Assembly: GCA_045638265.1 (NCBI GenBank)
Contig: JAZUBA010000044.1
Span: forward strand, 62,082 to 126,081
Direction: 5' to 3'
Length of the DNA: 64,000 nucleotides
DNA from: Alphaproteobacteria bacterium
Lineage (GTDB): Bacteria > Pseudomonadota > Alphaproteobacteria > CAAHEQ01 > UBA3637
Part shown: positions 6,058 to 24,156 of the stretch, piece by piece
How the letters are laid out: the number at the start of each line of letters is the position of its first letter
Numbering within the stretch: position 1 is the stretch's first letter
Notes under the pieces: generated by a model
What the model was told of the DNA's origin: nothing
The model's input: the letters and a program-made list of their open reading frames with translations, nothing else
Database searches by the model: none
Translations under genes and position numbers: made by a program

Positions 6058-6174
6058 TTTGAATAAAATCCTATCAAAATATCAAAAAAACAAGCTTTTT
6101 CAAAAAAAAGCTTGCATTTTTCTGTAAATGGCGTAAAATTAAATATATAAGTATATATTTTTTAAGGGGGTATA

Positions 6175-7107
6175 ATGTTTTTCATAAAAAAAGCTTTACC
6201 AAAAATTTTGTTAGGAATGATATTTGTGTGCGGGATGAGTTTTTATCCTAATGCTTATGCACAAGTCCCGATTTCGGGGTTTACACAGATAGTTACAGAT
6301 GTGACAAAAGTGATTAAAACAACCAATTCAGTTGCAATTAAACCTGTAGTTGATCAAAAAGTATATCTTGAAACGAAAGTACAAGGTACTGTTCAAGAAT
6401 GGAAAGGTGCGGTGAACGAGCAAATTACAGATATGTACGATTCGGCATCTTCATGGGCAGAAAATCAGTATGGCGAAGTCGCTTCTTGGGCAGAGGAAAA
6501 GGGGAATGCTGTCGCTTCATGGGCAAGTGATCAAGGAAGTGCGATTTCTTCATGGGCAAGTGACACGTTTGGTGGTGGAGCTCCTGGTAGTGGTTTCTCT
6601 ATGAAAGATTTAAAATGTAATTTGGAAGTCGTAAAAAAAGGTGTTGCTAAAGTCGGAAAAACAGTTGCTCCTGTTGCTACATTAATGCAAAATCCTCTTG
6701 CAGGTGCCATTGAAATTAAAAAGAAAATGTATATGGGAGAAGTAAATTCAGAAGATAAATTAAGTACTTATGATACAACTACCGTAATGCAAAATGTAAA
6801 ACAATATGTTCAGGATGCAACGAAAACAACGTTGGTTGATGCAACACAGGTTATTAATGGCAGTATTTCTTATTCGGATGGAAAAAAGAGTGTATCTAGT
6901 TGTACAGCAGAGGGTGCCAATAAGGCCTCTAATGTAAAAGAGGATATTAAATTGGTTAATGATATGGGTATTTCAACGAATGTGATGACGAATGTGTTGT
7001 TGTCAATGGATATTACCGAATTATCTGTTAATAGTACATTGGTTTATGAAGATATTAACGGTATTAAAAATATGTTTTCTAAAACATTTCAGGGAGGGAT
7101 GCAATAA
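6175..7107 (+). CDS. Secreted helical protein, VirB5-like candidate 1
   Basis: Sec signal ending AYA|QVP, helical C-terminal region, first gene of the cluster leading into virB8. Confidence 0.45.
   Translation: MFFIKKALPKILLGMIFVCGMSFYPNAYAQVPISGFTQIVTDVTKVIKTTNSVAIKPVVDQKVYLETKVQGTVQEWKGAVNEQITDMYDSASSWAENQYGEVASWAEEKGNAVASWASDQGSAISSWASDTFGGGAPGSGFSMKDLKCNLEVVKKGVAKVGKTVAPVATLMQNPLAGAIEIKKKMYMGEVNSEDKLSTYDTTTVMQNVKQYVQDATKTTLVDATQVINGSISYSDGKKSVSSCTAEGANKASNVKEDIKLVNDMGISTNVMTNVLLSMDITELSVNSTLVYEDINGIKNMFSKTFQGGMQ
6445..6570 (+). repeat. Four ~33-bp (11-aa) SWA-centred repeats inside ORF 6175
   Basis: SSWAENQYGEV / ASWAEEKGNAV / ASWASDQGSAI / SSWASDTFG. Confidence 0.75.
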
Positions 7108-8012
7108 TGATTAAAAAAATAGTTTTAACAAATGTATTTCTTTCTTTGATGCTTTTTTCATCTGTGGTCTGGGGTGGTAATCCTACACATGATGTGCGTT
7201 CTTATAAAGATGAAATAAAGGGCGCTCAACAAGCTACGGAAGAGTTAAAAAAAGAAATGGATAATATGACAACTGCTGTTAAAAGCTTGACGGATGTTGG
7301 GTCGTTGGTTGATGGTCTGTTGAATTTTGATTTTTTAATGCCAAGTAAAAAAACAGATAAAAAATCAAAAGTAACAACGGATGTGACAAAACCGTTTACA
7401 CAAAAAACATCAGCTGGTTCAGGTGATGTTGCTGGACAGGCAAAGGCTGTAGCTAGTTCGATAACTGGGAGTTCTGGAAGTGACGATGAAAACCCTTTTC
7501 CTGATAGAGCAGAAATGAATAAGCAAGTGGATGCAATGCAGGTTAAAGGTGAGTCTTCATCTGATTCAGAAAGTAGTGGTTCGGTTGTGGATACGGCAAA
7601 AAGCGTCGTATCATCGGCAAGCGGTCAAAGTGAAGAAAACAGTTCTACTGGACAAGAGATTGCAGGTAAACGAAAAAAAATGCCTCAAACCAAACAAGCT
7701 TGGGCAAGATATTCGCTTGCAACAGCATTGGTGAATCGTTCGTTGGCATATAGGACTGTTGCTGATACTAAAAAACAGACAACAGAAAAAGTAAATAATG
7801 CAACAAATCTGCGTAAAGCACATACAGCAAAGGTTCATGGCTATTCAGCAATGGCAGCCAGTTATAACAGATTGTTATTGTCACAAGCCGTTGCCAATGG
7901 ATTAGCTTCCTTGAAAGCAATGGATCATGTTGAAGGTAAAATCAGTATCAGCAATCCTTTAATGGAAGGTATGGGCGGAAAGATGAATGATCTTAAAAAT
8001 TTTGTTCAATAG
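7107..8012 (+). CDS. Secreted helical protein, VirB5-like candidate 2
   Basis: Signal peptide then GNPTHD (cf. the VirB5/TrbJ mature N-terminus GIPVxD). C-terminal helices include VNNATNLRKA. Confidence 0.55.
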   Translation: MIKKIVLTNVFLSLMLFSSVVWGGNPTHDVRSYKDEIKGAQQATEELKKEMDNMTTAVKSLTDVGSLVDGLLNFDFLMPSKKTDKKSKVTTDVTKPFTQKTSAGSGDVAGQAKAVASSITGSSGSDDENPFPDRAEMNKQVDAMQVKGESSSDSESSGSVVDTAKSVVSSASGQSEENSSTGQEIAGKRKKMPQTKQAWARYSLATALVNRSLAYRTVADTKKQTTEKVNNATNLRKAHTAKVHGYSAMAASYNRLLLSQAVANGLASLKAMDHVEGKISISNPLMEGMGGKMNDLKNFVQ

Positions 8013-8021
8013 GAGTGAAAA

Positions 8022-8801
8022 ATGAAGATAAAAAAGATATATGGCGTATTGATAGCTTTTGCACTTTTTATGAATGTAACTCCGGCATATTCAACATATA
8101 TGGTTACCGAATGGTTGAGTTGGGCTGAAAAAAAAGTCCAAACGGTTACTGAAAAATTGGCTGATATTGATATGAATGAAATGTTGCAAAAGAAAAAAGA
8201 TCAGTTAGCAGCACAAGATCCGAACGCAGATAAAAGTAAACCGGCAACAACAGACAATGCGAGTGGTTTAAAGCAGTCAGAAATTCCACCTTATGTTGAT
8301 CCGCGTATTAAGGCAGAACTTGATAAAGAAGACCCTTCTATTCCTACTGTTGAAGGGTTGTTAAAAGAAACTCTTGTGTATAAATCAAAAACCATTAGTG
8401 ATAAAGGTTCTGTTGATGATAGAACAAAAGGAAAAAAAGTTAAAGTCGATAAAGATAACGAACAGGATAATACGTTGGAAAAACAACAGGCACAAGCTCT
8501 TGTATCTTATGATAATGGTCGTGCAATAGCACGTCGTGTTCAGGATTTGAGTGAAGTGGTGAGTAATGATGAATCTGAAATGGAGACGGATAAAAATTCA
8601 CGGACAACAACGGGTTCATTGTATAAGGCTTCTTCGTCTATAACATATAAAACACATATGTTATTAAATGAAATATCAGTCATACGAAACAGTTATTTAG
8701 AAGTAATGGCTATTGATGCTGTACAAGCAGAAGAAGTGCCAGAGCAAAAGAGTATGGTAGATACAATGAAAGATGTTGCAAAAGGTGCATTGGGCGGATA
8801 A
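8022..8801 (+). CDS. Secreted helical protein, VirB5-like candidate 3
   Basis: Signal peptide ending PAYS. Similar size and helical C-terminal architecture to its neighbours. Confidence 0.45.
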   Translation: MKIKKIYGVLIAFALFMNVTPAYSTYMVTEWLSWAEKKVQTVTEKLADIDMNEMLQKKKDQLAAQDPNADKSKPATTDNASGLKQSEIPPYVDPRIKAELDKEDPSIPTVEGLLKETLVYKSKTISDKGSVDDRTKGKKVKVDKDNEQDNTLEKQQAQALVSYDNGRAIARRVQDLSEVVSNDESEMETDKNSRTTTGSLYKASSSITYKTHMLLNEISVIRNSYLEVMAIDAVQAEEVPEQKSMVDTMKDVAKGALGG

Positions 8802-8812
8802 AGGGGGATGCG

Positions 8813-9694
8813 ATGAAATATTTGATAATGTTTTTAATGGTATTTGTTTTTATAACAGAGGGTAATGCAGCGTGTCCGGCAATGACATTTGATATGGCAC
8901 GGGAAGCGAAAGAGGCTGTTCGTAAGATTAAAGAATATGCTATTGAGTATTATGAAGATTTAATCAGTAAAAGCGAAGATGATATTAAAGAAGCAAAACA
9001 AGGTAATGCTGATTGTAAAAACAGTCCGGAAAATACAAAAGATCAAGTAATTAAAACAGAAACATTTAAGTATTTGTATGACAAGGTCTTAGATGCACCG
9101 GAAGATGATGCTGATTATTATTTGGCACGAACAAAAAATTATGAAGAAGCAAGAATTGCTGTTAAAGAAAAGTTTTTTTACGAAACGGATACACAATTAA
9201 CAGAGCGTGGAGAATCATTAAAAGAAGTTACCGGATTTGATGCAACCGCAACCGGTGGATTGAAAACAACAGCTGAGTTGTTTGAGATATTGAGAACACG
9301 TGAAAAATATGCAAATGCCGTTGCAGCAAAAAATTTGGCAATATCTATGGATTTAAGAGAAAAAATTGGTACTGATTTGAAGTCTACTGAAAAAGTGGCA
9401 ACGAGTGGATGTAACCAATTGCAAGGTATGTTGTTGGAAAATAGAAATTTAGCAGCATTATTAAAAGAAACGGCTTCGGATTTGGTTGTTCAGATATTGA
9501 CATTGGAATCGTTAGCAGCAAGAAATTTACAAAAAGAATCGCCACAGTTGTTGACTGTTCCTAATAAAGCTAAAAAGAATGAAAAGTCTATGTTGGGAAA
9601 AACTGTGGATAGCGTTAAAGAAACAGCCGGAGATGTTTCCGGTATTGTAAACAATTTGTCATCTGTTGGTGCTTCGGCAATGTCCGGATTTTAA
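8813..9694 (+). CDS. Secreted helical protein, VirB5-like candidate 4
   Basis: Signal peptide then ACPAMTFD, long amphipathic helices. Confidence 0.45.
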   Translation: MKYLIMFLMVFVFITEGNAACPAMTFDMAREAKEAVRKIKEYAIEYYEDLISKSEDDIKEAKQGNADCKNSPENTKDQVIKTETFKYLYDKVLDAPEDDADYYLARTKNYEEARIAVKEKFFYETDTQLTERGESLKEVTGFDATATGGLKTTAELFEILRTREKYANAVAAKNLAISMDLREKIGTDLKSTEKVATSGCNQLQGMLLENRNLAALLKETASDLVVQILTLESLAARNLQKESPQLLTVPNKAKKNEKSMLGKTVDSVKETAGDVSGIVNNLSSVGASAMSGF

Positions 9695-9706
9695 AAGGAG
9701 TGTAAT

Positions 9707-10546
9707 ATGAAGTATAATAAAAAATCTTTTTTAGTTTATTCACTCGCATGTTTTGTTATTGTTGCATCAGTTTCATCTGCACATGCTATTTGTTTAGTAA
9801 ACCCCACTATGTGTCCGGTTGAAATGTGTGGTTATCAAACACAGGAAAGTCCTTCGGCACAAATGATGCAAAAAGTAACAACAGGATATAAAACAGCCAA
9901 AAAAGAAATAAAGAGCATTCGTAAGTCTGTGTCGGGTATTATGAAATCTGTAACGGCACTGCCGGGGATTGTCATGGGATTGGCGGCACAAGTTGCCAGT
10001 TTGCCGTTTGAAGCAGTTAGTTCAACGTTGGGTTTAACAGAAGATAAACAAAAAAAAGCGGAAGATGATCCAAACAATGTAACACAATACAACACTCATG
10101 GCATGCAAACCGTTCAAACAAGAATAGACGAAAACTTAAAAACCTATAATACAGAAGCTAACTCTGATTATGACAGTCAATATTTTAATTTGGCACGTCG
10201 GCAATTTATTCGTCAGCAGGCAACGATTACTTTGATGGCACGTGTTGCTGTGTTGAAGAGTTATTTTAAAGATATACATGACGCCATGGAACAAGCAGAT
10301 AAAGAAATTGAAAAAATTTCTGCTCAATCTTCAGGCGAGGCAAGTAATTCCTATAATGAATCATCGGTTGGGAAGATGAATTTGGCATTAAAGCAGGCTT
10401 GGTTTAATTTGTTGACTATCCAGAAACAAGTAGAAGCTGTTAAATTGGAATTTGCTTCAAATCAGGCAATAGCCGGTATGAAAATGACAAAAAAAGTACC
10501 CACGGTAAGTGGTAATAAAGATTCATCTAATCAATCAAAAAAATAA
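9707..10546 (+). CDS. Secreted helical protein, VirB5-like candidate 5
   Basis: Signal peptide ending AHA, Cys-containing mature N-terminus, helical C-terminal bundle. Confidence 0.45.
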   Translation: MKYNKKSFLVYSLACFVIVASVSSAHAICLVNPTMCPVEMCGYQTQESPSAQMMQKVTTGYKTAKKEIKSIRKSVSGIMKSVTALPGIVMGLAAQVASLPFEAVSSTLGLTEDKQKKAEDDPNNVTQYNTHGMQTVQTRIDENLKTYNTEANSDYDSQYFNLARRQFIRQQATITLMARVAVLKSYFKDIHDAMEQADKEIEKISAQSSGEASNSYNESSVGKMNLALKQAWFNLLTIQKQVEAVKLEFASNQAIAGMKMTKKVPTVSGNKDSSNQSKK

Positions 10547-10556
10547 GGGGGATAAT

Positions 10557-12221
10557 ATGAAATATTCAATTTTGTTATTGGCAGGAATTTCATTTGTTGG
10601 GTTAAGTGCTATTTATTCAACACCTGCAACAGCACAATTTGTACAAGCAGAACCGTATGTTGATCCGGATCCGATTCAACCGGCAATCGGTAATTATCAA
10701 GAACCACTGATGCGTGCTATGAAAATACACGACATACAGTATAATATTAATGATTTGCAAAAACTCCTTATTCCGTTAGCTGAAAATGAAAAAGCAAACA
10801 AGGAATTGGCGGAAGCTCAATTAAGTGCTATGGCGGATTGTAATATTCAAAATTTATCCCTGTATTTTAACAATCCGGAAGAGGTATGGTCAAAATTGCT
10901 GGATACATATCAATCTAAAATTAAAGAATTAACTATTCATATTAATAGTGCTGGTTTAGAAGCTGATATTGAATCAGGTAATGCTGAAAATGCAACGGTA
11001 GCAGCTCAATCCATCACGAGTGAAGAAGAAATGGCTGAATCTTATCCCTATTGGCGTGTCGGATATCAGATTTTGATGGATTTATACAATAATCCCGAAA
11101 ATTATGGTTCAACAGATGGAAAAGCAAAATTGCCTTTATGGATAGACCAAAAATACCAATATACAAAAGATGTTGTTGCTTTGTTGACACAAATCAAAAC
11201 ACATTTTTGGATTCATAATACATTAAATGATGTTGCAAATGCAGATTTAGTTCGATTAATTAATCGTTTTTCACAAACAGACGGTATTTTGGATACTTTG
11301 GATTATCAGAAAAATTTAAGTCAATATAATGAGTTGATATCTTATTTGAAAAAGCGTAGAAATTATAGTGAGACAGCTAAAAAAATAGCCAATATTGATA
11401 AGTTTCCACAATTACCGAAACCATTACCGCCTGTATATGAGATTATACAGCCTATGATGGAAAAAAAAGAACAAGAACGGTTGGTGATGTTCCCTCAATG
11501 GCCATCTCCTTGGGCAAGATATATTCGTGAAGGATTAAAGGATAGAGCAAAAAATGGTGAAATGGATACATTCTTTTTGCCAAAAACAATTAATTTACGC
11601 CCTGAAGTTTTGGGTTGGGATTCAACGAAAATTAACAACAGATTGTCAGTTTACCATGAAAAACAAAATGATGTTGACAGTTATACAAAAAGTTATGAAA
11701 CAGCAAAACAAAATGTTGAAAATACTGTTGCAAGCGTTAACGAGAGTTTGAAAGAATTAGGAATTGAGGAAATATTGGATTTGTCTGCTGATGTAACGGC
11801 TTTGCAAAACAAACTGGTTGAATTAAAATTGGCAGAAGTTCAAAAAGCTCGTTCCTTGTTTGAACAAAATGCAGCAACAATTAAAAAAGAAAATTCTGTA
11901 TCTGTTGAAGCGACAACAAAGGACAGTTTAAATGCTTTAGCTAATTTAGATCCTTCGTCAGAAGAATATCAACTATTAGCTACACAAATGAATGCAGCAC
12001 AAGGTTCTCATGATGAAGGGTTAATGGATGATTTGGAAAAAGATAAAAATGGATATGCCATTCAATCTCCGATTGCAACAAATGATCCTGTTCAAAATAT
12101 AGAAGCACAAGAAGCAGAATATGTGTTGCATGCAAAAACTATTGATGCTTCTGAAAAAGAGCGTGAACAGATTAGACAACGAGCAATTGATTTATTGTGT
12201 ATTAATGGTGGTGTAAAATAA
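10557..12221 (+). CDS. Secreted coiled-coil protein of unknown function in the T4SS cluster
   Basis: ATG at 10557 follows a GGGGG RBS (track start 10509 is an upstream extension). Signal peptide ending ATA|Q. One base from the first virB8. Confidence 0.6.
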   Translation: MKYSILLLAGISFVGLSAIYSTPATAQFVQAEPYVDPDPIQPAIGNYQEPLMRAMKIHDIQYNINDLQKLLIPLAENEKANKELAEAQLSAMADCNIQNLSLYFNNPEEVWSKLLDTYQSKIKELTIHINSAGLEADIESGNAENATVAAQSITSEEEMAESYPYWRVGYQILMDLYNNPENYGSTDGKAKLPLWIDQKYQYTKDVVALLTQIKTHFWIHNTLNDVANADLVRLINRFSQTDGILDTLDYQKNLSQYNELISYLKKRRNYSETAKKIANIDKFPQLPKPLPPVYEIIQPMMEKKEQERLVMFPQWPSPWARYIREGLKDRAKNGEMDTFFLPKTINLRPEVLGWDSTKINNRLSVYHEKQNDVDSYTKSYETAKQNVENTVASVNESLKELGIEEILDLSADVTALQNKLVELKLAEVQKARSLFEQNAATIKKENSVSVEATTKDSLNALANLDPSSEEYQLLATQMNAAQGSHDEGLMDDLEKDKNGYAIQSPIATNDPVQNIEAQEAEYVLHAKTIDASEKEREQIRQRAIDLLCINGGVK

Positions 12222-12222
12222 A

Positions 12223-12867
12223 ATGAGGCTGTTTGGCTTTAAAGAAAGTGATATTGTTGTTGGTTCAGGTAAAAGTTTTGCCCAGTTGTGGATGATTATT
12301 GCTTCTGTGTTTTTGGGTATTAATCTTTTCCTGATACTGACATTATTGCAAATAACGCCCAGATTGAAAGTTGTGGCGCAGGTTTTAACAGTAACACCTA
12401 TGAATTCAGGTCAGTTTTTACAAGTTGAACCTTTTGATCAGGAAACAAGTGATAAGAAATTAATTGATGAGATGTTAATTCGTTTTTATATGGATTCACG
12501 TCATAATTCTTTTGGGGATAAACTTGAAATGACATATCGTTGGGGTAAAGGAGGACCTGTTCATCGCTTATCTTCTTCAAAAGTATATAATGAGTTTGCT
12601 GGAAATTTTAAAGAAAAAATAAATGCAGCTTCCAAGCAAAAGTCAACAACGAGTATTCGTATTATGAATATTACAATTCGTCAAAATAATATATATGATA
12701 TTGAATTTGAAAAATATAAATTAACGAAGGGTGTTTTGGAATCCAGACGAAAAAATGCTGTTTTGAAAGTGGCATATTCATCACAATATAAATCAATGGG
12801 ACGTTTACCGATTAATCCCTACGGTATGTATGTTGTGTATTATAACGAAACAAATAAATTGAGGTAA
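12223..12867 (+). CDS. virB8: VirB8-family T4SS protein (copy 1)
   Basis: Single TM, then LIRFYMDSR, VHRLSSSKVYNEF and C-terminal INPYGMYV (NPxG motif). Confidence 0.75.
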   Translation: MRLFGFKESDIVVGSGKSFAQLWMIIASVFLGINLFLILTLLQITPRLKVVAQVLTVTPMNSGQFLQVEPFDQETSDKKLIDEMLIRFYMDSRHNSFGDKLEMTYRWGKGGPVHRLSSSKVYNEFAGNFKEKINAASKQKSTTSIRIMNITIRQNNIYDIEFEKYKLTKGVLESRRKNAVLKVAYSSQYKSMGRLPINPYGMYVVYYNETNKLR

Positions 12868-12948
12868 AATATCAGAAAAAAACTTTTTTGTTGATTCTTA
12901 AAAAATATGTGCTATGATAAGTATAGTTTAAATGAAAGGAATAAAAAT

Positions 12949-13128
12949 ATGAAAAAAAATCTAGTAGCTCTTGCTTTTTTAGCTGTAATTGCTGTTCTTG
13001 CTGCTTGTGGTTCTGTTTATGAAAAAGAACCTGTCGGTGTTGGAGCAGATTATTCTGAATTAAAAAAATCTCCTTGTGCATGCTTAGAAGTTGAAAAAGC
13101 TCCTAAATTGCCAAGTTGGTTTTTATAA
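12949..13128 (+). CDS. virB7: VirB7-like small lipoprotein
   Basis: ATG 12949 after AAGGA, lipobox LAA|C, 59 aa, KSPC motif, located between two virB8 genes. Confidence 0.65.
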   Translation: MKKNLVALAFLAVIAVLAACGSVYEKEPVGVGADYSELKKSPCACLEVEKAPKLPSWFL

Positions 13129-13151
13129 ATTAAAGAGAAATGAGTTAAAAA

Positions 13152-13856
13152 ATGGAACAATTTGAGCAATCAAATAATTCATCTTATGATGTTGTATATG
13201 ATGCTGATAATTCAGAAGAAGCAGCAACCGAGCGGCGCTATCTTTGGATTGCCCGTACGTTTGCTCTTATTTCGGTTGTTTCATTTTTGGGAACACTTAT
13301 TTTATTAATTGCTTTGTTTTCTTTAATGCCGGTTATGCGTGTTCAACCTTTTTATTTGACAACGCTGAACAAAGATCAACAAATTGTTCAAATTCAGAAA
13401 CCTAAAATTGAAGATATTGATATGCAATTATTAACCGAATCATTAATCAGACAATATGTCTTGGCTCGTTTTACGGTTAGTTCTAATATTTCTGAAATGG
13501 TGCGCCGTTGGGGCTTGGATGGCATTGTGAACCAAATGAGTGATCAAACGGTTTTTGCGGAGTTTAGTAGTGCGGCAGAAGATGTGTTAGCTCAAGTAAG
13601 ACAACAAGGCTTAACCCGTTCAGTTCGGATTTTGAATGTTCGTAATCTTGGCTCTGATGCTGGTACAAATAAAAGTGTTTGGGTTGCAGAAATTGAAGTA
13701 ACCAGTATGAAGCAAGGCGATGCGGAACCTGTAAAAAGTACATGGGTAGTGCGTATGCGTGTGTATTATGAGGGACGCACAGGTGCTGTTTGGGAAAAAC
13801 GATTACAAAATCCGCTTGGTTTTAAAGTTGATCGCTTTGGTATACAGGCAAAATAA
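13152..13856 (+). CDS. virB8: VirB8-family T4SS protein (copy 2)
   Basis: TM, LMPVMRVQPF, LIRQYVLAR, C-terminal RLQNPLGFKV. Confidence 0.85.
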   Translation: MEQFEQSNNSSYDVVYDADNSEEAATERRYLWIARTFALISVVSFLGTLILLIALFSLMPVMRVQPFYLTTLNKDQQIVQIQKPKIEDIDMQLLTESLIRQYVLARFTVSSNISEMVRRWGLDGIVNQMSDQTVFAEFSSAAEDVLAQVRQQGLTRSVRILNVRNLGSDAGTNKSVWVAEIEVTSMKQGDAEPVKSTWVVRMRVYYEGRTGAVWEKRLQNPLGFKVDRFGIQAK

Positions 13857-13870
13857 AAGAATAATGATAA

Positions 13871-13907
13871 AAAAACACTTGTTGAGTACCAACGAGTGTT
13901 TTTTTTT
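13871..13907 (+). terminator. Intrinsic terminator after virB8 copy 2
   Basis: aaaaacacttgttg-agtac-caacgagtgttttt stem followed by a T-run. Confidence 0.7.
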
Positions 13908-14359
13908 GATAAATAAGATTCAATTTTTTATAAAAATATCGTTTGACAGATATGTGTTATTCGTTAAACTATTATGTCTATTGTTTTGACTTAAAATCAA
14001 AAAAGTTATTTGATAAAATGAAATAAGTAGAACGTACTGTGTTTGATTTTTTAGTGAAATCAGTTTTTATTTAATACTGATTTGTCAATATAAATATTTG
14101 TTTTGTGTGTTTTGTTAAATAAGTAAAGCAAATTGAATTTTTGTATTTATAACTTGATGTGTTAAAGAGTGTTTTTGTTAATAAAAAGTAAATAAGTATG
14201 GTTAGTTAAACGAAAGAATATGATAAAAGTAGGGATGTGGCCAGAAAATAAAATATTTATAAGAAAAAAAATGCATTAAAGTGCATTTTTTACTAGACTT
14301 TTACCCCTTTTATGGGTTATCCTATGCACAGGATTGTAAATTTTTAGAGGAGAAGATTT

Positions 14360-16090
14360 ATGTATACACACAATTCATATAAAATTTGTTGGTTGACAAG
14401 TGTAGCTTTGGCTACGTTTATTTCAACAGTATCAATGGCACAATCCATTTTGCCGGCAAACATGCAAACAGAACAACTCAATGATGCAGTTGCTCAAACG
14501 AATGGCGAGTTTGAATCTGTTAATTTAGATTATTTAAATTCACTGGGTATGCAACAAAAGGCATGGAATGATCCTTTATCACATATGGGCGAAGGTCAGT
14601 CAAAACCGGGATATTCAAAATATACATGGACTCCGGATGTTGTGTTACCGATTCGTTTGCGTGAAGGCATGATGACGTTAATTAATTTGCCGACTTGGGA
14701 ATTGGTTGAAAAAGTGCATATTGGTTCTCCTGAATCGTTTGGTGGTGAAATTGCTGCACCAAACTCTCTCCTCGTTTATGCTGATCCTTCTTATTTAGGG
14801 GTAGACAGTAATATGATTATTTTTGGCCGTTCAGGTAACAGATATGTATTCTATTTGCGCTCTGAAACATATAATACGGAAAAAATCACTCAGTCTGTTG
14901 TGGATGTTTTGGTTGGTCCAAAATATACGCCGGTTGAAAATGGAGGAAAACTAGGAAATTTTAATGGTGCCACGACAACGGCAGCTGGTACAGGTTCTTT
15001 GGGTGCAGGTGCTCCGAATTGGTCGGGAAGTCGTGGCAACGGACAAAATCCGCAACTTGGATTAAATACGGCATCAACCGGCCCAAAAGATTGGTTGAAA
15101 AATATTCCGGTAGATCCAGAAAGTTTTCATTTTGATATAGATATGTATTTGCCAAATCCGTCAGATGTTGATATTGCACCGGATAATGTATGGAGAGATA
15201 ATATTTTTACATACATTGATTTAGGACCAAAAGCCTTAACAATGACGCAACGTCCAATTGTCAATTTAGTTGTTCAGGATGCTGAAGTCCCTGTTGGTTT
15301 TAGAACCAGTGGCCCGAATAGTCGTTTGATTGTTGTTGAGGGTATTGGTGATATGGTTTTGCGTAACGGTAAAAAGTTAATTTGCTTGAAGTTGCGTAGA
15401 GATCCATCTTCCGGTTTGGAATATACTGATTATAGTGGTTCTCAAAGCAATTCTTTGGTAAAACCGTCAACTATCAGTAAAGAACCGGTAGATATTGTTC
15501 CGGAAACAAAATCTGAAATGCCAAAAGCTCAAAATGCGGAAATGGCAGAAAGTTCTGAAAAAGTAGCACAAAATAATGCAAAACAAATTGAGCAATATTT
15601 TAATCAGGCAAATAATGTGCCAGTTTCTGGAATGCCAATTGCTCAATCCGGCATGATTCAATCTCCTGTGGTATATCAAGGTGCTTCCGTTATGTATGAA
15701 CAAAACATGTCACCACTACCAGCTATTCCGGCAACAGTTATGAATTCTCCAACGGCATCTGCTAATATTGTTAATGTTATGAATGATGTTGTTTCTGCAC
15801 GTCCGGGTGTGTCATCGCCAGTAAGTGATAAAGAAACAATTTCTATTGAATTAGGGACAAATGCGGACATTTCAGAATTAGAATCGATTTGGGAAACGAT
15901 ATACACACAAAATAAAGATACATTAGAGGGATATGAACCATATTATTCTGTTGATACAACGGCAGATGGTAATATGAGAGAATTATTCCGCTTGCGTGTT
16001 GGTCCTGTTAAGGATGTAAAAACAGCAGATAAATTATGTAAAAAATTGGGACGGAAAGGATTCTCTTGTTCTGTTGTGCGGATGCAATAA
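14360..16090 (+). CDS. virB9: VirB9/TrbG-family protein with low-complexity linker and C-terminal SPOR domain
   Basis: Signal peptide, SNMIIFGRSGNRYVFYL, IAPDNVWRDNIFTYID and LRNGKKLIC match VirB9. C-terminal FRLRVGPVKDVKTADKLCKKL..G.SC is SPOR-like. Confidence 0.8.
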   Translation: MYTHNSYKICWLTSVALATFISTVSMAQSILPANMQTEQLNDAVAQTNGEFESVNLDYLNSLGMQQKAWNDPLSHMGEGQSKPGYSKYTWTPDVVLPIRLREGMMTLINLPTWELVEKVHIGSPESFGGEIAAPNSLLVYADPSYLGVDSNMIIFGRSGNRYVFYLRSETYNTEKITQSVVDVLVGPKYTPVENGGKLGNFNGATTTAAGTGSLGAGAPNWSGSRGNGQNPQLGLNTASTGPKDWLKNIPVDPESFHFDIDMYLPNPSDVDIAPDNVWRDNIFTYIDLGPKALTMTQRPIVNLVVQDAEVPVGFRTSGPNSRLIVVEGIGDMVLRNGKKLICLKLRRDPSSGLEYTDYSGSQSNSLVKPSTISKEPVDIVPETKSEMPKAQNAEMAESSEKVAQNNAKQIEQYFNQANNVPVSGMPIAQSGMIQSPVVYQGASVMYEQNMSPLPAIPATVMNSPTASANIVNVMNDVVSARPGVSSPVSDKETISIELGTNADISELESIWETIYTQNKDTLEGYEPYYSVDTTADGNMRELFRLRVGPVKDVKTADKLCKKLGRKGFSCSVVRMQ

Positions 16091-16143
16091 ACAGAAAATC
16101 ACAAAAAGGAATATGGTTTAATTTCTATTAAAGTAGGATAACA

Positions 16144-19100: not shown

Positions 19101-22100
19101 TACTGTTTCAGTAAATAATAAGATCTTGCAAAAAGAAAAATACTTAGGTGTTGCTTCCTCTACAAAATATGTCTATTCAATGGATGACAAAAAACTTGGT
19201 CAAGTATTGCAACCGGGTATTGCTGTTAATAACGATGGCGGATTATTAGGCTGGACGTTGCCTGATGGTACTATCGGCACAAATAAAGGGAGTATCGGTC
19301 GTGTTTTGTTTGACAACAAAGTCGTCAATACAAAGGGCGCTGTTATCGGATCATATATTCCTTTCGGAACAACTGCTTTTGATGATAAAGGTCAAACAAT
19401 CGGATTGGTTAATCAAAACGGTGAAATTGTAACAACTGATGAAATGGTTAAAGGTAAAATCAGAGGAACAGATACAGTTGTTCGCGGGAATAATATTGTT
19501 GGTCAGCTCTTGTCTGATTTGCCGTATATCAGCAATAATTTGCTTGGTAAAACATCGGGTGCCGCACAATTAAATGGTGAAGTTGTTAATGTAACGAATG
19601 GTAAGTCTATCGGTTCGTTGATGACAAATAATTTTGTAACCTCATTTGCCGGTCAGCTTGTTGCTACAAAAACGCCGTTAGGGGTTGCTGTAAATAACTC
19701 TTTGGCTACTTTAGGTGAGTTAAATGTTGATGGAAGTATTAACGGAAATAAAGGTCAAGATGCTCGTGTCAGCGGTTCTGGTGCAATTTATGATGCCGGT
19801 GGAAAGATTTCCGGTTCTGTTTTGCCAATATCAACCTTTATTAATAAAACAGGTGGATTATTAGGTAAAAACGGTACAAATAATCAGATTGTTGATCGAA
19901 CAGGTAAACAAATTGCCGTTCAAATGCCGTTTGGTACAGCTTTAACCGTTAATAACATTTGGGCAGGCGGTACATTACCAAGTGGTATGGCGGTTAATGA
20001 TGATGCTGTTCAATTGGGTGCGACGACTGCAGATGGTGTTGTTTTAGATGAAAATGATATGATTGTCGGTCGTGTATTGAGTGATGGTGCTGTTATCAAT
20101 GTATCTGACAGAGAATTGTTTAATACAATGCCGTACCTTGGTGGTATGGTTTCTCAAGGTATTCCGTTTAGTTATCGTAATAAAGTATTAGGTGCCACAA
20201 CGGTTAATGGTGATGTTATTGATAGCACAGGCGTTAAACTTTTCCGAATACTTGATGATGCTACAATTTTAGGTAAGGATGAACCATTAGTCGGTTCAAT
20301 TTTGCCGATTTTAACAGCTGTTTCCCATTCAGGTGAGTTTTTAGGTACATTGGGTGCTGATGGTCGAGTCATTTTACCAACTGGTGAAGCCAAAGGTAAA
20401 ATAGCTGTTAATGAAACGGTTAAAGGTGAAGAATTTGAAATTTTAGGGGCATTGGTTCCAAGGAGAACAATCACAAACGATTGTCAAATTATTGGTGTTT
20501 CAGCAATGAATGGTTATGTTGTTAATGCACGTGGAGCAGTTGTGGGTCGGGTTAAACCAGATAAATGGGCTGTTTCTCCATCCGGTGAAAAAATTGGTCG
20601 TGTGACACGTAATGGTTTGGTTATTTCTGAAACCGGCGAATATTTAGGTCGTACATTAACAGACTCAACGGTTGTTGACTTGTCAGGTGTCAATTTAGGT
20701 TGTGCTAAAAATGATGGTACAGTTGTTGATAACAATGGCAATGTTATTGGTAAAGTTGTTGAACGTGGTCTTGTTTTAGGTAAAGATGGTAAACCTTTGG
20801 GTCGTATTAAGGCAGACGGTTCTGTCGTGAATGCCAAGGGAGAAGTTGTTGGTAAAGTTTTGGCTAACGGTGATGTTGTTGATGAATACGGTAATGTTAT
20901 TGGACACAATATTGGACGTGACCAAGAAATTTTATACGATGAAAACGGCAATATTAAGGGTACGTTTGGTACAGATGGTACGTTCTATGATTCAAAAACA
21001 GGAAAAGCCGTATTCCGTGTTGATGAAAATGGAAATGTATATGATGCAAACGGTAATTTAATCGGAAAATACAAAGGCGGACAATTCACAACATTAAATG
21101 GTGATCCGATGGATGAAGTAACATTGTTGGTTGACAAAAACGGTAATGCCTTTGGTATTGTTTCTGATTGTGAGGTATTAAGTCCGACCGGAGGCGAAGT
21201 TATTGCTAAAATTCAACCGGATGGCAATGTAGTTGACATGAACGGTGAAGTAAAATATCGTATTTTAGGTACAGGTGTTATTTTGGATACTGCCGGAAAT
21301 GAAATTGGCAAAGTTTCAGGTACATCTGTTAAGTTAGATAAATGTGGTATTAAGAGTATGGATGCTGTGAGCGATGATATTATCGGTCGTTTAAAAGATG
21401 GTATTCTTTATGATAAAGACGGTAATGTAATCGGTGAATTAAAAGACGGTATTCTTTATGATAAAGATGGCAATATTATTGGTTATGTCAAAGATGGCAT
21501 TATTTATGACAAAGATGGTAATATTATTGGTTATATTGATGAAAACGGTAATGTTCACTTGTATGGTAAATCCGGAGATGGTGTTGGTACGGGTGAAGGC
21601 GTAGCTGGACGTGCTATTTTTATCGGAAATAAAAAGTATAATATAACATCTGATGGTAAATCTATTGTAACTGATGATGGTACAATTATTGGTTACATGG
21701 GAGAAGATGGTAAGCCATACACATTGGACAATCGTCAATTAACCGCCAGTGGTGATGCAGCCGGTCGTTCTCGCCCGAATTTTGCGCAACGCCAAGTTGC
21801 AACACCTGAACAAATTCAAAAAATGAAGGATTTGCTGACGAAAAAACGTGAAAGTATGAAAACAAATATACTTGAACGTGGTAAAATTACAGCGGGTGCT
21901 CATGTAAAAGCAATGAGCAGACAGAAAAAAGATGCAAATTGGAAGGGAGTTCCTCGCTCGGTTTCTTCATGGCCGGTTGATATGTCTCGTATGATTTTAC
22001 AGGATAAAGCGATTCCGGCAGTGTTGGTACGTTCTGTTGATTCACGATTCTCTGATGTTCCTGTAACAGCTATTGTTGAACGGCATGTTTATGCTGAAAA

Positions 22101-22968
22101 GGGACGTAACATTTTAATTCCGGCCGGTAGTCGTGTTATCGGTAAGATGTCATCAGGCAGTTATAATGGCAGAGTTGCTAAAATGGAAATTACATGGGAA
22201 CGTTTGATTCGTCCAGATGGTGGTGCCTTTAAATTTACGGCAACATCCGGTGATGCTCAAGGTAGAGGTGGTGTTGCTGCCTATTTGGATGACCAGTTAA
22301 TCAACAAATATGGTAAGCCGGTTATGACATCTGTTGTTACATCTGCGGTATCTTATATGATGGCAGCAAATGATGACTATACGCAAAATGTAAATGACGG
22401 TACGACAACCCAATCTTCAAAATCACAAGCAGTTGCTGATGCACGAGAAAGCTTTATTAGTGCCATGGATAGAATTTTCAATAATTTGATTGAAGATGCA
22501 ACAAGTATCCCAAATGTTGTGTTTGTTCCTTCCGGTACACGTATTACAATTTTCTCACAAGAAGATTTATGGTTGCGTTCAGAAGAAGATGACATTGAAG
22601 AATACGCTAATTCCAGTGATTATCAAGATATGTCTCAAGCTCAAAAGCCGAATACAAGTTCTTGGGTTGATAAACGAACTGGTGGTGATTCTGAAACTGA
22701 GGAAGATGAAGATACAGAAGATGAAGAAGATTCTGAAAAATCTGATGAAGATAAGAAATCAGAGTTACCAAATTATTATCAGCCGAATGATTCATATAAA
22801 TCGTCGTCGGTCAATGGTAATGATGTTGTTTTAAATTCTGTTACCTCTTCGACAAATGAACCAGTTTATGATGGCACCGCGAATCGGGTTGTTGAGGATA
22901 TTCCACTCAAAGAACGTGCAGTCGTACCTGTTTTACCGAAAAGCGGTACTTCTAGCCGATTATTTTAA
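16144..22968 (+). CDS. virB10: Giant VirB10/TrbI-family protein (TM, Ig-like domain, ~1600 aa of beta-hairpin repeats, TrbI domain, acidic tail)
   Basis: C-terminal IPAVLVRSVDS, ILIPAGSRVIG, WERLIRPDG, DAQGRGG. Lies between virB9 and virB11. Confidence 0.85.
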   Translation: MTRNRGTSSSEQYAKKSNRLLLFVGILAIIVFFVLILLMSGGNNKKAETVETEIWGGASDIDDVAPKPKDVDVFYRGEAKLKADPEQISMDRVVIGSKVDAILTLTAENKPIQFLKVDFVQQQADGFTFDTTCSADTIIQPGENCIVKIMWNPVKLQQLQNNLIVTWKESSTTAFNDFTTNVLVKGQSIDSECCVTCEDSATKKEAEPRMAMGLDGNLYEVDKDGYITLPDGTRVKVTDNGLFIDENGNIVGIIQPEYIALNMKNEVIGNITPSNEVTNANGESIGKLLGDKTIVDSKLTVLGAGVPVLPVMNKQGEVVGKMTKDGTVVDAQGKVIGKVWVDGQAVALDGTQIGYIRPWGLVADFNGKIIGGIISDGRVFNAKNETVAQITPGGFAINTQGELVGATIPQGVAVGAGCQSLGKVLLNGDVRDSFDQIIGTALIDGTIVNTKNEEIGSVISQGLVINESGSVVGFVNSEGKAVSGQGKVIGCVNPNGTISAGKRLVGSVLAKGHVIGYSCNSIGSVFPSGEVYNSALNVVGKVMPDGFVKDAENKIIGLVVTRAAAVANGCRLLGLVSITGEIIDLSKKVVGCLTPEKTVVDSSGKIVGSIAPRGVVYKDDGSILGRVRLDGKVMDLQGKVIGCYNADGTITTLSGEILAHGKQGDGVILDADGNPTGWTRIGNEIFDANGNKIGEVNSNNVIVDANGRYIGFIPENGVIFSPEGLIIGRYSSKIGYAVNQNNERFGRILPNNTVVSADTGEVVGGLIPDNAGFIDKGSKLLGYMKVDGTLTDNEGNIIGAIRGDGTVIDKDGNVIGYRILEGRVVSMTGKDVGTVMKDGTVVSGEHTTIGHVDGLGLAVSENGKILGAVMPKLGLGYDGVGLLGYMAPDGTMTDNSGSVIGKALPFGLIVSADGTAIGKLRDMAVYVNQDNKTIGWISFEGTLKGKDNRVVGNIKPAGLATDKNNNLIGYAINKGIVVDGSGKMISTVSVNNKILQKEKYLGVASSTKYVYSMDDKKLGQVLQPGIAVNNDGGLLGWTLPDGTIGTNKGSIGRVLFDNKVVNTKGAVIGSYIPFGTTAFDDKGQTIGLVNQNGEIVTTDEMVKGKIRGTDTVVRGNNIVGQLLSDLPYISNNLLGKTSGAAQLNGEVVNVTNGKSIGSLMTNNFVTSFAGQLVATKTPLGVAVNNSLATLGELNVDGSINGNKGQDARVSGSGAIYDAGGKISGSVLPISTFINKTGGLLGKNGTNNQIVDRTGKQIAVQMPFGTALTVNNIWAGGTLPSGMAVNDDAVQLGATTADGVVLDENDMIVGRVLSDGAVINVSDRELFNTMPYLGGMVSQGIPFSYRNKVLGATTVNGDVIDSTGVKLFRILDDATILGKDEPLVGSILPILTAVSHSGEFLGTLGADGRVILPTGEAKGKIAVNETVKGEEFEILGALVPRRTITNDCQIIGVSAMNGYVVNARGAVVGRVKPDKWAVSPSGEKIGRVTRNGLVISETGEYLGRTLTDSTVVDLSGVNLGCAKNDGTVVDNNGNVIGKVVERGLVLGKDGKPLGRIKADGSVVNAKGEVVGKVLANGDVVDEYGNVIGHNIGRDQEILYDENGNIKGTFGTDGTFYDSKTGKAVFRVDENGNVYDANGNLIGKYKGGQFTTLNGDPMDEVTLLVDKNGNAFGIVSDCEVLSPTGGEVIAKIQPDGNVVDMNGEVKYRILGTGVILDTAGNEIGKVSGTSVKLDKCGIKSMDAVSDDIIGRLKDGILYDKDGNVIGELKDGILYDKDGNIIGYVKDGIIYDKDGNIIGYIDENGNVHLYGKSGDGVGTGEGVAGRAIFIGNKKYNITSDGKSIVTDDGTIIGYMGEDGKPYTLDNRQLTASGDAAGRSRPNFAQRQVATPEQIQKMKDLLTKKRESMKTNILERGKITAGAHVKAMSRQKKDANWKGVPRSVSSWPVDMSRMILQDKAIPAVLVRSVDSRFSDVPVTAIVERHVYAEKGRNILIPAGSRVIGKMSSGSYNGRVAKMEITWERLIRPDGGAFKFTATSGDAQGRGGVAAYLDDQLINKYGKPVMTSVVTSAVSYMMAANDDYTQNVNDGTTTQSSKSQAVADARESFISAMDRIFNNLIEDATSIPNVVFVPSGTRITIFSQEDLWLRSEEDDIEEYANSSDYQDMSQAQKPNTSSWVDKRTGGDSETEEDEDTEDEEDSEKSDEDKKSELPNYYQPNDSYKSSSVNGNDVVLNSVTSSTNEPVYDGTANRVVEDIPLKERAVVPVLPKSGTSSRLF
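21391..21534 (+). repeat. Three tandem 48-bp (16-aa) repeats in virB10
   Basis: LKDGILYDKDGNVIGE / LKDGILYDKDGNIIGY / VKDGIIYDKDGNIIGY, with high DNA identity. Confidence 0.85.
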
Positions 22969-22992
22969 TTAACCAATGAAAGGAGGGGGACA

Positions 22993-23982
22993 ATGGGTGA
23001 GTTATCAATCAGTGATACATATAAAGTGCTAGAATCGGCACTACGTCCCCTTTCATATTGGTATAATCAGGATAATGTAGAAGAAGTTGCCGTTGATTCA
23101 CCGGGCGGTATTTGGTTGCGGTTACGTGGCAAACATGCTCATCCTTGGCACTATTATGAAGATGGTAAATTAACAAGAGAGTTTTTAAATAACATCTTAT
23201 ATATCATTGCGAATACATACGATTATGCTTTTGATCCGGAACAAGGAACTCCTGTTGTGTATGCAACATTACCAGGAGGTCATCGTTTTACGGGTATTTC
23301 AGGCAGAAATGTTATGTATGATAACAACGACTTAACAGGCGGTATTGCATTGGCGATTCGTGTTTATCGTGAAGATGTTTCAATTAAAATGAGTGATTTC
23401 GGATTAAGTGAAGGGGCACGATTGCGACCGTTAAATCGTTTAAAGCAAGTTGAAGATCCTGACGATCCGTTTGAGCGTTTGCTCTTATCTATTAAACGTG
23501 GTGATCATGTTTTAGTTAGTGGTGCAACTGCAACCGGTAAAACAACATTCTTGAACAATTTAATCAAGATTTTGGACCCTCATAAACGTATTTTAACGAT
23601 TGAGGATACACGAGAATTAATTGTACCTCACAAAAACAGAGTTCATATTGTTTTACCTCGTACGGAATTAACTAATAAATTTGATTATAAGAGAGTTATT
23701 GACTTGGCTGTTCGTTTCACACCGGATGCGATTATTGGTGGTGAAATTTCAACGTCTAATGCCGGTGCATTATGGGAATTGATGGGATCAGGACATGATA
23801 ACTGTTTTGCTACCATTCACGCTGAAAGTCCCGAAGCAGCCTATAAAGCCTTTATTGGTAGAATTTTGCACTCATATCCGACAACGGATAGAGAAAAAAC
23901 ATATCGTGAAATGAAAGAAAAGTTACGTGTTGTGCAAATTAATCGTGATGGTAATATTCGTGCTGTTACTGAAGTTACATAA
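22993..23982 (+). CDS. virB11: VirB11 traffic ATPase
   Basis: Walker A GATATGKTT, Asp box IEDTREL, PDAIIGGEI, His box GHDNCFATIHA. Confidence 0.9.
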   Translation: MGELSISDTYKVLESALRPLSYWYNQDNVEEVAVDSPGGIWLRLRGKHAHPWHYYEDGKLTREFLNNILYIIANTYDYAFDPEQGTPVVYATLPGGHRFTGISGRNVMYDNNDLTGGIALAIRVYREDVSIKMSDFGLSEGARLRPLNRLKQVEDPDDPFERLLLSIKRGDHVLVSGATATGKTTFLNNLIKILDPHKRILTIEDTRELIVPHKNRVHIVLPRTELTNKFDYKRVIDLAVRFTPDAIIGGEISTSNAGALWELMGSGHDNCFATIHAESPEAAYKAFIGRILHSYPTTDREKTYREMKEKLRVVQINRDGNIRAVTEVT

Positions 23983-23990
23983 TAATTTAC

Positions 23991-24018
23991 AAAACACCGT
24001 TGTTTTTACGGTGTTTTT
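23991..24018 (+). terminator. Terminator after virB11
   Basis: aaaacaccgt-tgttttt-acggtgtttt hairpin. Confidence 0.7.
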
Positions 24019-24156
24019 AGTTATTAATAGAGATATTTTTTAGAAAAAATATAACATTAATGATAAAATAAAATGGTAGAAATGTTTTAGTTTAAATAAG
24101 CCCTTGAATAAGTTTCAAGGGCTGTTTATAATTGTATCTAAATAAGTTTTGTAAAT

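Follow-up and report, generated by a model that had tools for sequence, protein, structure and literature searches.

An apparently undescribed variant of the P-type type IV secretion system in mostly gut-derived Alphaproteobacteria

The rvh type IV secretion system (T4SS) of the Rickettsiales is divided into islets in its published layout, with B3-B4a-B6a-e in islet A, B2 in islet B, B9a-B8a-B7-B8b-B9b-B10-B11-D4 in islet C, B1 in islet D and B4b in islet E, with no VirB5 in that layout and with ComB-like features of VirB7 and VirB9 (PMC2653234). The passages of a further study that bear on its origin infer acquisition by transfer from a proteobacterial donor and suggest that the system may first have served free-living bacteria (PMC9352585). 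Here we analyzed a locus at positions 6175-23982 of a 64 000-nucleotide (nt) stretch of alphaproteobacterial DNA (the window; C44:62082-126081 of a genome of 1.98 Mb in 79 contigs, rated 100% complete; codes such as C44, G002, L024 and f79 are our own handles for contigs, genomes, loci and families). In this locus six open reading frames (ORFs) for putatively secreted proteins, here called o1-o6, are followed by virB8-virB7-virB8-virB9-virB10-virB11, and an original prediction, made from the sequence of the window, had proposed a vertically inherited secretion machine with Rickettsiales-like gene order.

Since rvh was compared through its published layout, the likeness concerns gene order and not sequence. 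As far as that layout goes, the predicted resemblance held with regard to the B8-B7-B8-B9-B10-B11 order, the division of the genes into vertically inherited chromosomal islets, VirB3-VirB4 having an islet of their own, the solitary VirB2, the multiplied VirB6, the extra VirB4 and the lack of VirB5. It did not extend to VirB9, which in rvh is duplicated around the VirB8 pair whereas it is single in this genome, or to virD4, which in rvh directly follows virB11 whereas the two virD4 genes found here both lie on other contigs. The five VirB6 of the rvh layout, moreover, belong to the virB3-virB4 islet, compared with three located elsewhere in the present genome. Also unlike rvh are the giant VirB10, the SPOR domain on VirB9 and the six secreted proteins encoded upstream and, in contrast to the bearers of rvh, this organism has no ATP/ADP translocase, none being found in the genome, so that nothing marks it as an energy parasite.

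We hold it to be probable, with moderate confidence, that the locus encodes, as one operon, the core that spans the envelope in a complete T4SS of the P-type (VirB/VirD4-like), fixed in a large clade of small-genome, mostly gut-derived Alphaproteobacteria. The P-type components VirB4, the VirB7/VirB9/VirB10 core, VirB8, VirB11 and VirD4 are all present, and the genes for these parts were shown to be intact, to keep their synteny with housekeeping genes and to evolve under purifying selection. On this view the system is not a mobile element, being instead a fixed chromosomal organelle.

The core operon and its partners elsewhere in the genome

ORF calling placed all ORFs as in the original prediction, and Pfam and NCBIfam scans confirmed its gene list, including the order of the six secreted ORFs and B8-B7-B8-B9-B10-B11 as well as the setting among housekeeping genes, with folD upstream and alaS downstream. 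It was also clear that virB2, virB3, virB4, virB6 and virD4 are absent from the window, as had been stated, with none found by phmmer using the genome's own copies as queries. All of these were located on other contigs, again among housekeeping genes (VirB3 and VirB6 scoring below cut-off), so that the system is chromosomal, with its parts scattered over several contigs. The prediction had allowed for a relic lacking virB4 and virB6; virB4 and virB6-like genes are present elsewhere in the genome.

The VirB4 protein (C55:5262-7706, 814 aa), encoded beside gatA and gatB, matched PF03135 at 42.5-45.1 bits (cut-off 21) and gave TrwK as best match in the PDB (E 7.7e-36). Directly upstream of virB4 lies a VirB3-like ORF with 20.8 bits against a cut-off of 23.9, which matches an annotated Microvirga VirB3 (E 9.7e-7), and upstream of that, at C55:3573-4817 (+), a 414-aa paralog of the N-terminal half of VirB4 (26% identity, E 1e-30), having N-terminal membrane helices and no ATPase half, that was not found upstream of virB3 in 29 other VirB4 loci. 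A VirB2-like pilin on C63 scored 41.7 bits, above its cut-off, whilst C51 carries three tandem polytopic VirB6-like paralogs with mutual BLAST E-values of 1e-13 to 1e-15, one of them matching TrbL at 24.1 bits compared with a cut-off of 25.9. The two VirD4 proteins have TraG-D_C and TrwB DNA-binding-type domains; the first is encoded on C68, after clpB and a gene for a NERD-domain protein, and the second on C23, near lspA, pgi and mutL and directly after a pentapeptide-repeat gene. VirB7, VirB9, VirB10, VirB11 and VirB2 are single-copy in the genome.

Some further observations were made at these loci. A third, weak VirB8-like stretch at C44:282502-283017 has 24% identity to VirB8b (E 4e-5), and several related genomes have three to four VirB8 family matches. 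The 572-aa pentapeptide-repeat protein (L010:6722-8440, C23) ends 3 nt before virD4, and the NERD-domain protein (L009:7286-8479, C68) is encoded just upstream of the other virD4, the gene for a MORN-variant repeat protein preceding it by two genes. Downstream of the VirB6-like genes, C51:648-1478 (-) encodes a single-copy 276-aa Tlde1/YkuD-like (L,D-transpeptidase fold) protein, scoring below both Pfam cut-offs. More than 60 ORFs have a prepilin-like N-terminus according to BLAST, of which 23 meet a strict motif; the set, with ORFs at window positions 63268-64000 (+) and C55:8089-11016 (-), includes Cys-rich paralogs of 630-1015 aa, about 22 in number and often located at contig ends. This pilin-like repertoire is very large for a 2-Mb genome.

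The SPOR-bearing VirB9 and the giant VirB10 put forward in the prediction are real according to Pfam, and they recur in related families. The SPOR score of VirB9 lies above the Pfam cut-off of 21 bits, and among six VirB9 proteins of the wider clade a SPOR match was seen in three (23.8, 20.7 and 20.4 bits), with none in the two next-closest genomes or in the Microvirga plasmid described below; VirB9 used alone found no match in the PDB. VirB10 has a cytoplasmic N-terminus, one transmembrane helix (about residues 19-40), a stretch weakly resembling an Ig/ASH-like domain (residues 79-171), a middle part of about 1650 residues made of beta-hairpin (beta-flower) repeats (13 Bflower_2, 2 Bflower and 3 DUF3659 stretches) and, beyond the C-terminal barrel, an acidic tail. 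Motifs of the type [DNEQ]xxG number 89 in residues 205-1860, compared with 6 elsewhere in the protein. The barrel domain best matched a PDB chain named COMB10 (E 5e-19), with E-values of 1e-7 to 4e-6 for VirB10, TrwE, CagY and TraF chains. Beta-flower repeats in VirB10 were confirmed in two other families, and in the inspected members of the 21-genome clade defined below VirB10 had 1930-2222 aa, or was split into two ORFs totalling 2700-3300 aa. The beta-flower fold was described only in 2023, with no known function, and is a relative of the lipid-binding barrels of Tubby-like proteins (PMC10584680). The SPOR-VirB9 and the beta-flower VirB10, the latter five times as long as usual, both combine domains in a new way.

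Distribution, inheritance and nearest relatives

Relatives of VirB11 were found at 38 loci in public genomes, 37 of them in metagenome-assembled genomes labelled Alphaproteobacteria, Rhodospirillales or Pseudomonadota, many with titles naming an animal or human gut, and one being an unrelated deltaproteobacterial match at 26%. According to record titles and run labels, the relatives are uncultured organisms from gut metagenomes of ruminants, rabbits and people. VirB9, giant VirB10 and VirB11 were detected in this order by tblastn in 31 of the 38 loci, with most of the others cut by contig ends. Identities across the loci were 44-78% for VirB9, 27-62% for VirB10 and 24-54% for VirB8a, and reached 68-96% for VirB11 in its 36 full-length alphaproteobacterial-type matches; in G002, as one example, o1-o6 had 26-32% where found, VirB10 49%, FolD 59% and VirB11 94%. 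VirB11 and VirB4 were among the most conserved proteins compared, the ATPases of the system being more conserved than FolD or AlaS. The VirB11 protein remained 92-96% identical where third codon positions were only 50-57% identical, which argues for an old divergence under very strong purifying selection and not for recent transfer.

The genes xer-lptFGD-surA-folD preceded the locus in all four genomes fetched, and in 20 further genomes o6 followed by VirB8a lay downstream of folD in 17 (VirB8a being detected by tblastn in 16 and by ORF clustering in one), with one of the remaining three cut by a contig end and two having folD elsewhere on the same contig (L085 is one of those with a non-adjacent folD). 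Overall, 21 of 24 related genomes have the operon downstream of folD. VirD4 was found in all 31 family genomes, 27 of which had two or more matches, and the VirB6 tandem in 12 of 12 same-genus genomes, and none of five relaxase families was detected; this is not the patchy distribution with a linked relaxase that the prediction had named as the mark of an ordinary conjugative element. In an even sample of the class, comprising 401 genomes, 54 had a VirB4 match at E <= 1e-30, with identities falling in steps from 66-76% in the same family to 54-71% (eight other family codes), 47-53% (two further codes) and 37-42% (six), the rest having at most 32%. Trees of VirB4 and AlaS from the same 26 genomes both recovered a 21-genome clade of 12 family codes (SH-like approximate likelihood ratio test, SH-aLRT, 100 and 95, respectively), together with each family and the pairing of f1 with f39, and VirB4 identity tracked AlaS identity inside that clade. 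These trees were made by quick search under LG+G4, rooted arbitrarily on one genome, from genomes with both proteins, with G365 and G301 (AlaS fragments), G232 (source of the mis-extracted L098 row) and G318 (no VirB4 locus) left out. Synteny, tree agreement and family-wide presence agree with conservation among related genomes and with the predicted vertical inheritance, which appears to extend across many related families.

Contigs of 150-370 nt from two gut metatranscriptome libraries of two studies covered o3-o5, VirB9 and VirB10, mostly at 97-100% identity and one at about 91%, giving a hint of expression, not a proof. Other parts of the locus were not covered in these libraries, a gap to which we attach no meaning. 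As a separate observation, G051:C19 and G232:C2 hold an extra second VirB4 of only 24-25% identity, which in G051 shares its contig with a VirB8 match and with a VirB11 (33%), two unlike T4SSs thus coexisting there.

Among 72,556 plasmids the best VirB4 match was pMVF16-3 of Microvirga sp. VF16 (NZ_CP069357.1), with 36.7% identity over 95% of the protein; the other 3081 plasmid records, identities below 60% being pooled into one band, had at most 28% among the matches listed, the VirB4 of pTi having 26.6%. The contiguous block of pMVF16-3, annotated mostly as hypothetical or VirB-family proteins, reads B2-B3-B4-x-x-x-B7-B8-B9-B10-B11-x-x-D4, with a MobA/MobL gene 3.3 kb upstream. Nine of its proteins (VirB2, B3, B4, B7, B8, B9, B10, B11 and D4) match proteins of the present system; its VirB9 is also long (550 aa), and it has no Pfam VirB5 and unnamed proteins after VirB4. 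It differs in being contiguous, on a plasmid and close to a relaxase gene, in having one VirB8, in lacking beta-flower repeats in its VirB10 (590 aa) and SPOR on its VirB9, and in its single VirD4 close to VirB11. In a FastTree of 98 VirB4 rows (every second of 122 representatives, with lengths of 740-900 aa; the mis-extracted L098 row, with a branch length of 4, is disregarded), the 25-row clade of the present system (support 100) was sister to a 16-row clade holding Microvirga (98), both inside a 51-row clade (99) apart from pTi, IncX4 and pXAC64.

Inspected members of the 21-genome clade had VirB8-VirB7-VirB8-VirB9-giant VirB10-VirB11 with no virD4 after virB11, the second VirB8 of f79 being 31 kb away, and the next-closest genomes (VirB4 37-42%) had a single VirB8 and adjacent virB11-virD4, their VirB10 measuring 505-610 aa. 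The adjacent VirB8 pair occurred only inside the 21-genome clade among the 401 class genomes and was seen neither in its basal 0.9-Mb members (f207, f78) nor in the next-closest genomes, so that the duplication looks internal to the clade. A history compatible with these data would be that a contiguous system of the Microvirga-plasmid type, with a relaxase gene 3.3 kb upstream, was domesticated, lost its relaxase and became scattered, while VirB8, VirB6 and VirD4 would have been duplicated, and the repeats of VirB10 gained, on the stem of the clade, the result converging on the ‘archipelago’ layout of rvh.

Gene-level features of the locus

The features of the locus are compiled in Table 1. 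The six secreted proteins are encoded co-directionally, and each has a hydrophobic signal-like N-terminus as judged by inspection, with no signal-peptide predictor used. None matched a Pfam or NCBIfam family above cut-off. Their position is conserved while their sequence evolves fast (21-50% identity where FolD has 57-77%), with o6 the best conserved, always directly upstream of VirB8a and having, across 22 sequences, 19 invariant positions, among them a PLPP motif and two cysteines; o6 relatives upstream of VirB8a were also found in four other loci, with two other family codes among these. The AlphaFold2 model of o6, a long helical bundle, had a mean local confidence (pLDDT) of 79.2 and a predicted template modelling score (pTM) of 0.72, compared with 71.9 and 0.56 for o4. 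Foldseek of both models against the PDB gave no match at E <= 0.001, and an ESM Atlas search with o6 no usable match.

The prediction had regarded these proteins as an array of VirB5 proteins, and this was not supported. PF07996 (VirB5) had no match at E <= 1 in the whole genome, and profile hidden Markov models of the six ortholog groups, run also against three Microvirga ORFs, scored at most 4 bits against the VirB5 proteins of pTi, an IncX4 plasmid and pXAC64. With the Pfam and NCBIfam scans and the two AlphaFold/Foldseek tests included, no VirB5 likeness was seen. As for an array in the sense of paralogs, BLAST and hhalign detected relatedness only between o3 and o4, with o1 joining the o3/o4 orthologs by single-linkage BLAST, and the remaining members stand apart. 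The modelled helical shape would be compatible with a VirB5-like protein; since no test supports homology, o1-o6 are here called system-specific accessory proteins.

Table 1. Coordinates of the features in and around the locus (window positions)
Feature	Position	Strand	Properties
folD	5194-6057		Upstream neighbour of the six-ORF block
Terminator-like palindromic hairpin	6091..6114	.	Between folD and o1; 10-pair stem, both strands
o1, 310 aa	6175..7107	+	Fast evolving, no family; 23-42% identity in relatives where tblastn finds o1
o2, 301 aa	7107..8012	+	Ser/Gly-rich middle, no family; ortholog group of 9 sequences, window copy included
o3, 259 aa	8022..8801	+	Helical, distant o4 paralog; hhalign 69%, E 4.3e-5, 133 columns
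o4, 293 aa	8813..9694	+	Model: three long helices and a small alpha/beta lobe
o5, 279 aa	9707..10546	+	Cys-rich N-terminus, no family; 22-member BLAST cluster, window copy included
o6, 554 aa	10557..12221	+	ATG at 10557; longer GTG frame starts at 10509
VirB8a, divergent copy	12223..12867	+	PF04335 51.5 bits, E 1.6e-13
VirB7, 59-aa lipoprotein	12949..13128	+	Hydrophobic signal ending in lipobox cysteine
VirB8b, canonical-like copy	13152..13856	+	PF04335 53.6 bits, E 3.4e-14
VirB8b-VirB9 spacer, 503 nt	13857..14359	.	No ORF; promoter-like site 13943-13970
VirB9 with low-complexity linker and C-terminal SPOR	14360..16090	+	CagX/VirB9 46.4 bits (86-343); SPOR 27.9 bits (524-574)
Giant VirB10, 2274 aa	16144..22968	+	TrbI/VirB10 at 1951-2144, 114 bits
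VirB11 ATPase, extremely conserved	22993..23982	+	T2SSE; best NCBIfam model TIGR02788 VirB11
Terminator-like hairpin	23991..24017	+	9 nt after virB11; second hairpin 24099-24123

The two VirB8 proteins were related to each other by hhalign (99.6%). A VirB8b profile matched PDB chains named ‘VirB8 protein’, which we take to be Bartonella entries, with a best E of 4.4e-16, far better than the VirB8a profile (best E 5.5e-8), so that one copy is canonical and the other divergent; PDB searches with the single VirB8 sequences gave nothing useful. A VirB7 counterpart was found in 25 of the 38 loci, at 41-82% identity, and a 58-aa ORF at the VirB7 position of the Microvirga plasmid matches VirB7 with E 2.5e-12. 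The VirB8b-VirB9 spacer, which in most relatives measures about 110-170 nt but reaches about 600 nt in L024 and L027, may possibly hold an internal promoter; an Rfam scan of window positions 1-30000, the spacer included, gave no family. The hairpin between folD and o1 likely marks the 5′ boundary of a transcription unit, its position alone being suggestive, and that after virB11 is likely the 3′ end of the operon. Together they would fit one long transcription unit, with promoter and terminator counts across the region being at chance level.

The upstream flank encodes, according to Pfam, an Xer-type recombinase, an LptFG-LptD fusion, SurA and FolD, and the downstream flank a 553-aa protein without family, AlaS and RecA. 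The fusion is a single ORF of 1083 aa (730-3981, +) with an LptF/LptG permease domain (6-355) and an LptD_N/LptD barrel (407-1018), and single ORFs of 1074-1097 aa occupy this position in four of four relatives; a one-chain envelope-spanning lipopolysaccharide exporter would be unusual. The 553-aa signal-peptide protein adjoining virB11 (24157-25818, -) has no Pfam or NCBIfam family and was not found next to virB11 in the relatives' loci compared; in full-length BLAST its last approximately 115 residues match five ORFs of 124-166 aa, at least four of which have a prepilin-like N-terminus. The nucleotide composition of the window is unremarkable in a genome of about 34% GC, with a decrease to 24% within positions 32001-34000.

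Mode of action, rival explanations and known systems

Because no DNA-transfer enzyme was detected, the system probably injects proteins and not DNA. VirB4, VirB11 and VirD4 would power contact-dependent protein export, through an inner-membrane platform of VirB6 and VirB8 and then through the outer-membrane core of VirB7, VirB9 and VirB10, with each of the two VirD4 paralogs recruiting its own set of substrates; possible substrates or adaptors are the NERD and pentapeptide-repeat proteins whose genes adjoin virD4. The SPOR domain would tie VirB9 to peptidoglycan, and the beta-flower region of VirB10 would replace the usual proline-rich periplasmic linker, its repeats perhaps forming a large, fast-evolving periplasmic or surface-facing cage, comparable to CagY of the Helicobacter Cag system. 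The six secreted helical proteins would serve as pilus-, stalk- or surface-associated accessories in place of VirB5.

A number of points weigh against this interpretation. The VirB6 and VirB3 assignments fall below the Pfam cut-offs, and the roles given to SPOR, beta-flower and o1-o6 are suggested by domain names and position. A search for substrates or effectors, by neighbours of VirB6 and by clustering the last 130 residues of 1516 ORFs, identified none, with only pilin-like and housekeeping families sharing C-terminal domains and no T4SS signal among them; the sole toxin-like neighbour, the Tlde1-like ORF, is absent from its position in 12 of 12 same-genus genomes. Absence of a relaxase relies on five Pfam models (PF03432, PF08751, PF03389, PF07514 and PF01076, each with no match in the genome), which a divergent or novel relaxase would escape. 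The proposed direction from a plasmid-type ancestor to the chromosomal system is read from an unrooted tree. The locus does move within genomes, as folD is not adjacent in two of 24 and the neighbours downstream of virB11 differ in all ten relatives examined, and the RNA libraries may contain DNA, their contigs being unable to show the level of transcription. It was also observed that, while the genomes of this group rearrange, the operon stays whole.

If the machine instead moved DNA, in a conjugation-like manner or by DNA release or uptake, it would do so via an unrecognized relaxase or none, as in ComB-type competence systems, and we regard this as rather unlikely. The MobA/MobL gene near the T4SS of the nearest named relative, the COMB10 affinity of the VirB10 barrel and the DNA-binding-type domains of the two VirD4 proteins would suit such a function, but the five relaxase families are absent and the genes lie among housekeeping genes at no fewer than five loci and are fixed in all family members that were searched, as would not be expected for a self-transmissible element. 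ComB systems, moreover, are not known to have VirB11 and VirD4, which are present here as the most conserved parts. The original prediction had noted neither relaxase nor integrase nearby, which held for the relaxase families but not fully for integrases, with a tyrosine recombinase ORF at window positions 1-729; its constant company of lptFGD-surA-folD in four of four relatives makes this read as a housekeeping Xer, and no tRNA was found within 6 kb of the locus. That the system is mainly an organelle of adhesion or a pilus, with variable secreted proteins and VirB10 repeats for attachment to host or prey, is quite unlikely in our view, even though its exposed parts evolve fast compared with the very conserved ATPases, a VirB2 pilin is present and the unusually large pilin-like repertoire suggests an attachment-centred lifestyle. 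Bartonella Trw, an adhesion-only system, is not known to have kept VirD4, whereas here 27 of 31 family genomes keep two VirD4, and the genes directly upstream of virD4, for the pentapeptide-repeat and NERD proteins, encode candidate substrates or adaptors. Decay of an integrated conjugative element into a relic could account for the scattered genes and the truncated VirB4 paralog, and yet it is extremely improbable considering the core ORFs, which are intact both in the window and at 31 of 38 loci, the conservation of VirB11 and VirB4 and the full complement found in the genome.

The layout shared with rvh could also have been inherited from a common ancestor, the present system then being a sister or member of rvh and its B8-B7-B8 order, multiplied VirB6, extra VirB4 and scattering being ancestral. 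Besides the layout itself (B8-B7-B8-B9-B10-B11, B3-B4, lone VirB2, no VirB5), the published ComB-like affinities of rvh VirB7 and VirB9 (PMC2653234) and the proteobacterial donor and possible free-living origin proposed for rvh (PMC9352585) can be cited for such kinship, though the closeness of the VirB10 barrel to COMB10 fits either view. We nevertheless find it unlikely. VirB9 is single and virD4 unlinked and duplicated, in contrast to the rvh layout; the adjacent VirB8 pair is confined to the 21-genome clade and missing in f207, f78 and the next-closest genomes; the VirB4 fragment upstream of virB3 has no equivalent in any of 29 other VirB4 loci; the nearest named relative is a contiguous plasmid system with a MobA/MobL gene; and there is no ATP/ADP translocase. 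Convergence is the more likely explanation for the resemblance, since the VirB8 duplication looks clade-internal, VirB9 is single, VirD4 is unlinked and the nearest named relative is plasmid-borne. Elsewhere in the class, three genomes with ATP/ADP translocases had neither VirB4 nor VirB8, and G381, considered as Rickettsiales-type due to a Surface_Ag_2 match, was rejected, its VirB4 locus being a compact canonical operon.

We therefore favour a protein-exporting P-type T4SS that is chromosomally fixed. More tentatively, and as a possibility that we put somewhat short of even, it may represent a second, independent ‘rvh-like’ event, in which a conjugative T4SS was domesticated into an indispensable contact organelle across at least 12 family codes, with a beta-flower VirB10, SPOR-VirB9, two VirD4, a secreted set instead of VirB5 and an epibiotic or host-attached life. 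If so, the giant VirB10 would provide the first cellular context for an orphan fold, and the architecture with its huge pilin-like repertoire would mark an epibiotic or host-attached lifestyle. A machine kept by every family member is probably central to how these gut Alphaproteobacteria live and, if independent of rvh, it would be another case of a conjugation machine turned into a fixed, scattered and duplicated effector system, with bearing upon the origin of rvh.

With regard to other known systems, the public annotation of the closest VirB4 relatives, all at least 70% identical, reads ‘hypothetical protein’, and in a literature search using guessed taxon names no description was found of such a T4SS in this lineage, nor one of a SPOR-VirB9. 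Helicobacter pylori Cag is similar in that CagY is a VirB10 homolog of several-fold normal size with long internal repeats before the C-terminal barrel, a CagY fragment matching the barrel found here with E 1.1e-6, and Cag also has helical accessory proteins other than VirB5, such as CagL. The repeats are, however, beta-flower hairpins (PF21784/PF21785) in place of those of CagY, the Cag island was acquired horizontally whereas the system described here is lineage-wide, and the match of CagL to the o4 model was no better than noise (rank 16, E 4.5). The bacteria-killing X-T4SS of the Xanthomonadales has a VirB7 enlarged with an N0 domain (PMC3093366), whereas the present VirB7 is a plain 59-aa lipoprotein. 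Effectors of the X-T4SS share a C-terminal domain that binds VirD4; the C-terminal clustering made here gave only pilin-like and housekeeping families. Agrobacterium VirB/VirD4, R388 Trw and pKM101 Tra use the same subunit families, with TrwE and TraF matching the VirB10 barrel and TrwK matching VirB4, but differ from the system studied herein by the low VirB4 identity (26.6% for pTi) and by its lack of VirB5, scattered genes, duplications and absence of a detected relaxase. Compared with all of these, the system is apparently an undescribed variant of the P-type T4SS, with components of known kind in a combination that appears new: lineage-wide fixation outside the Rickettsiales, a giant beta-flower VirB10, a SPOR-VirB9, two VirD4, three VirB6 and a six-gene secreted module.

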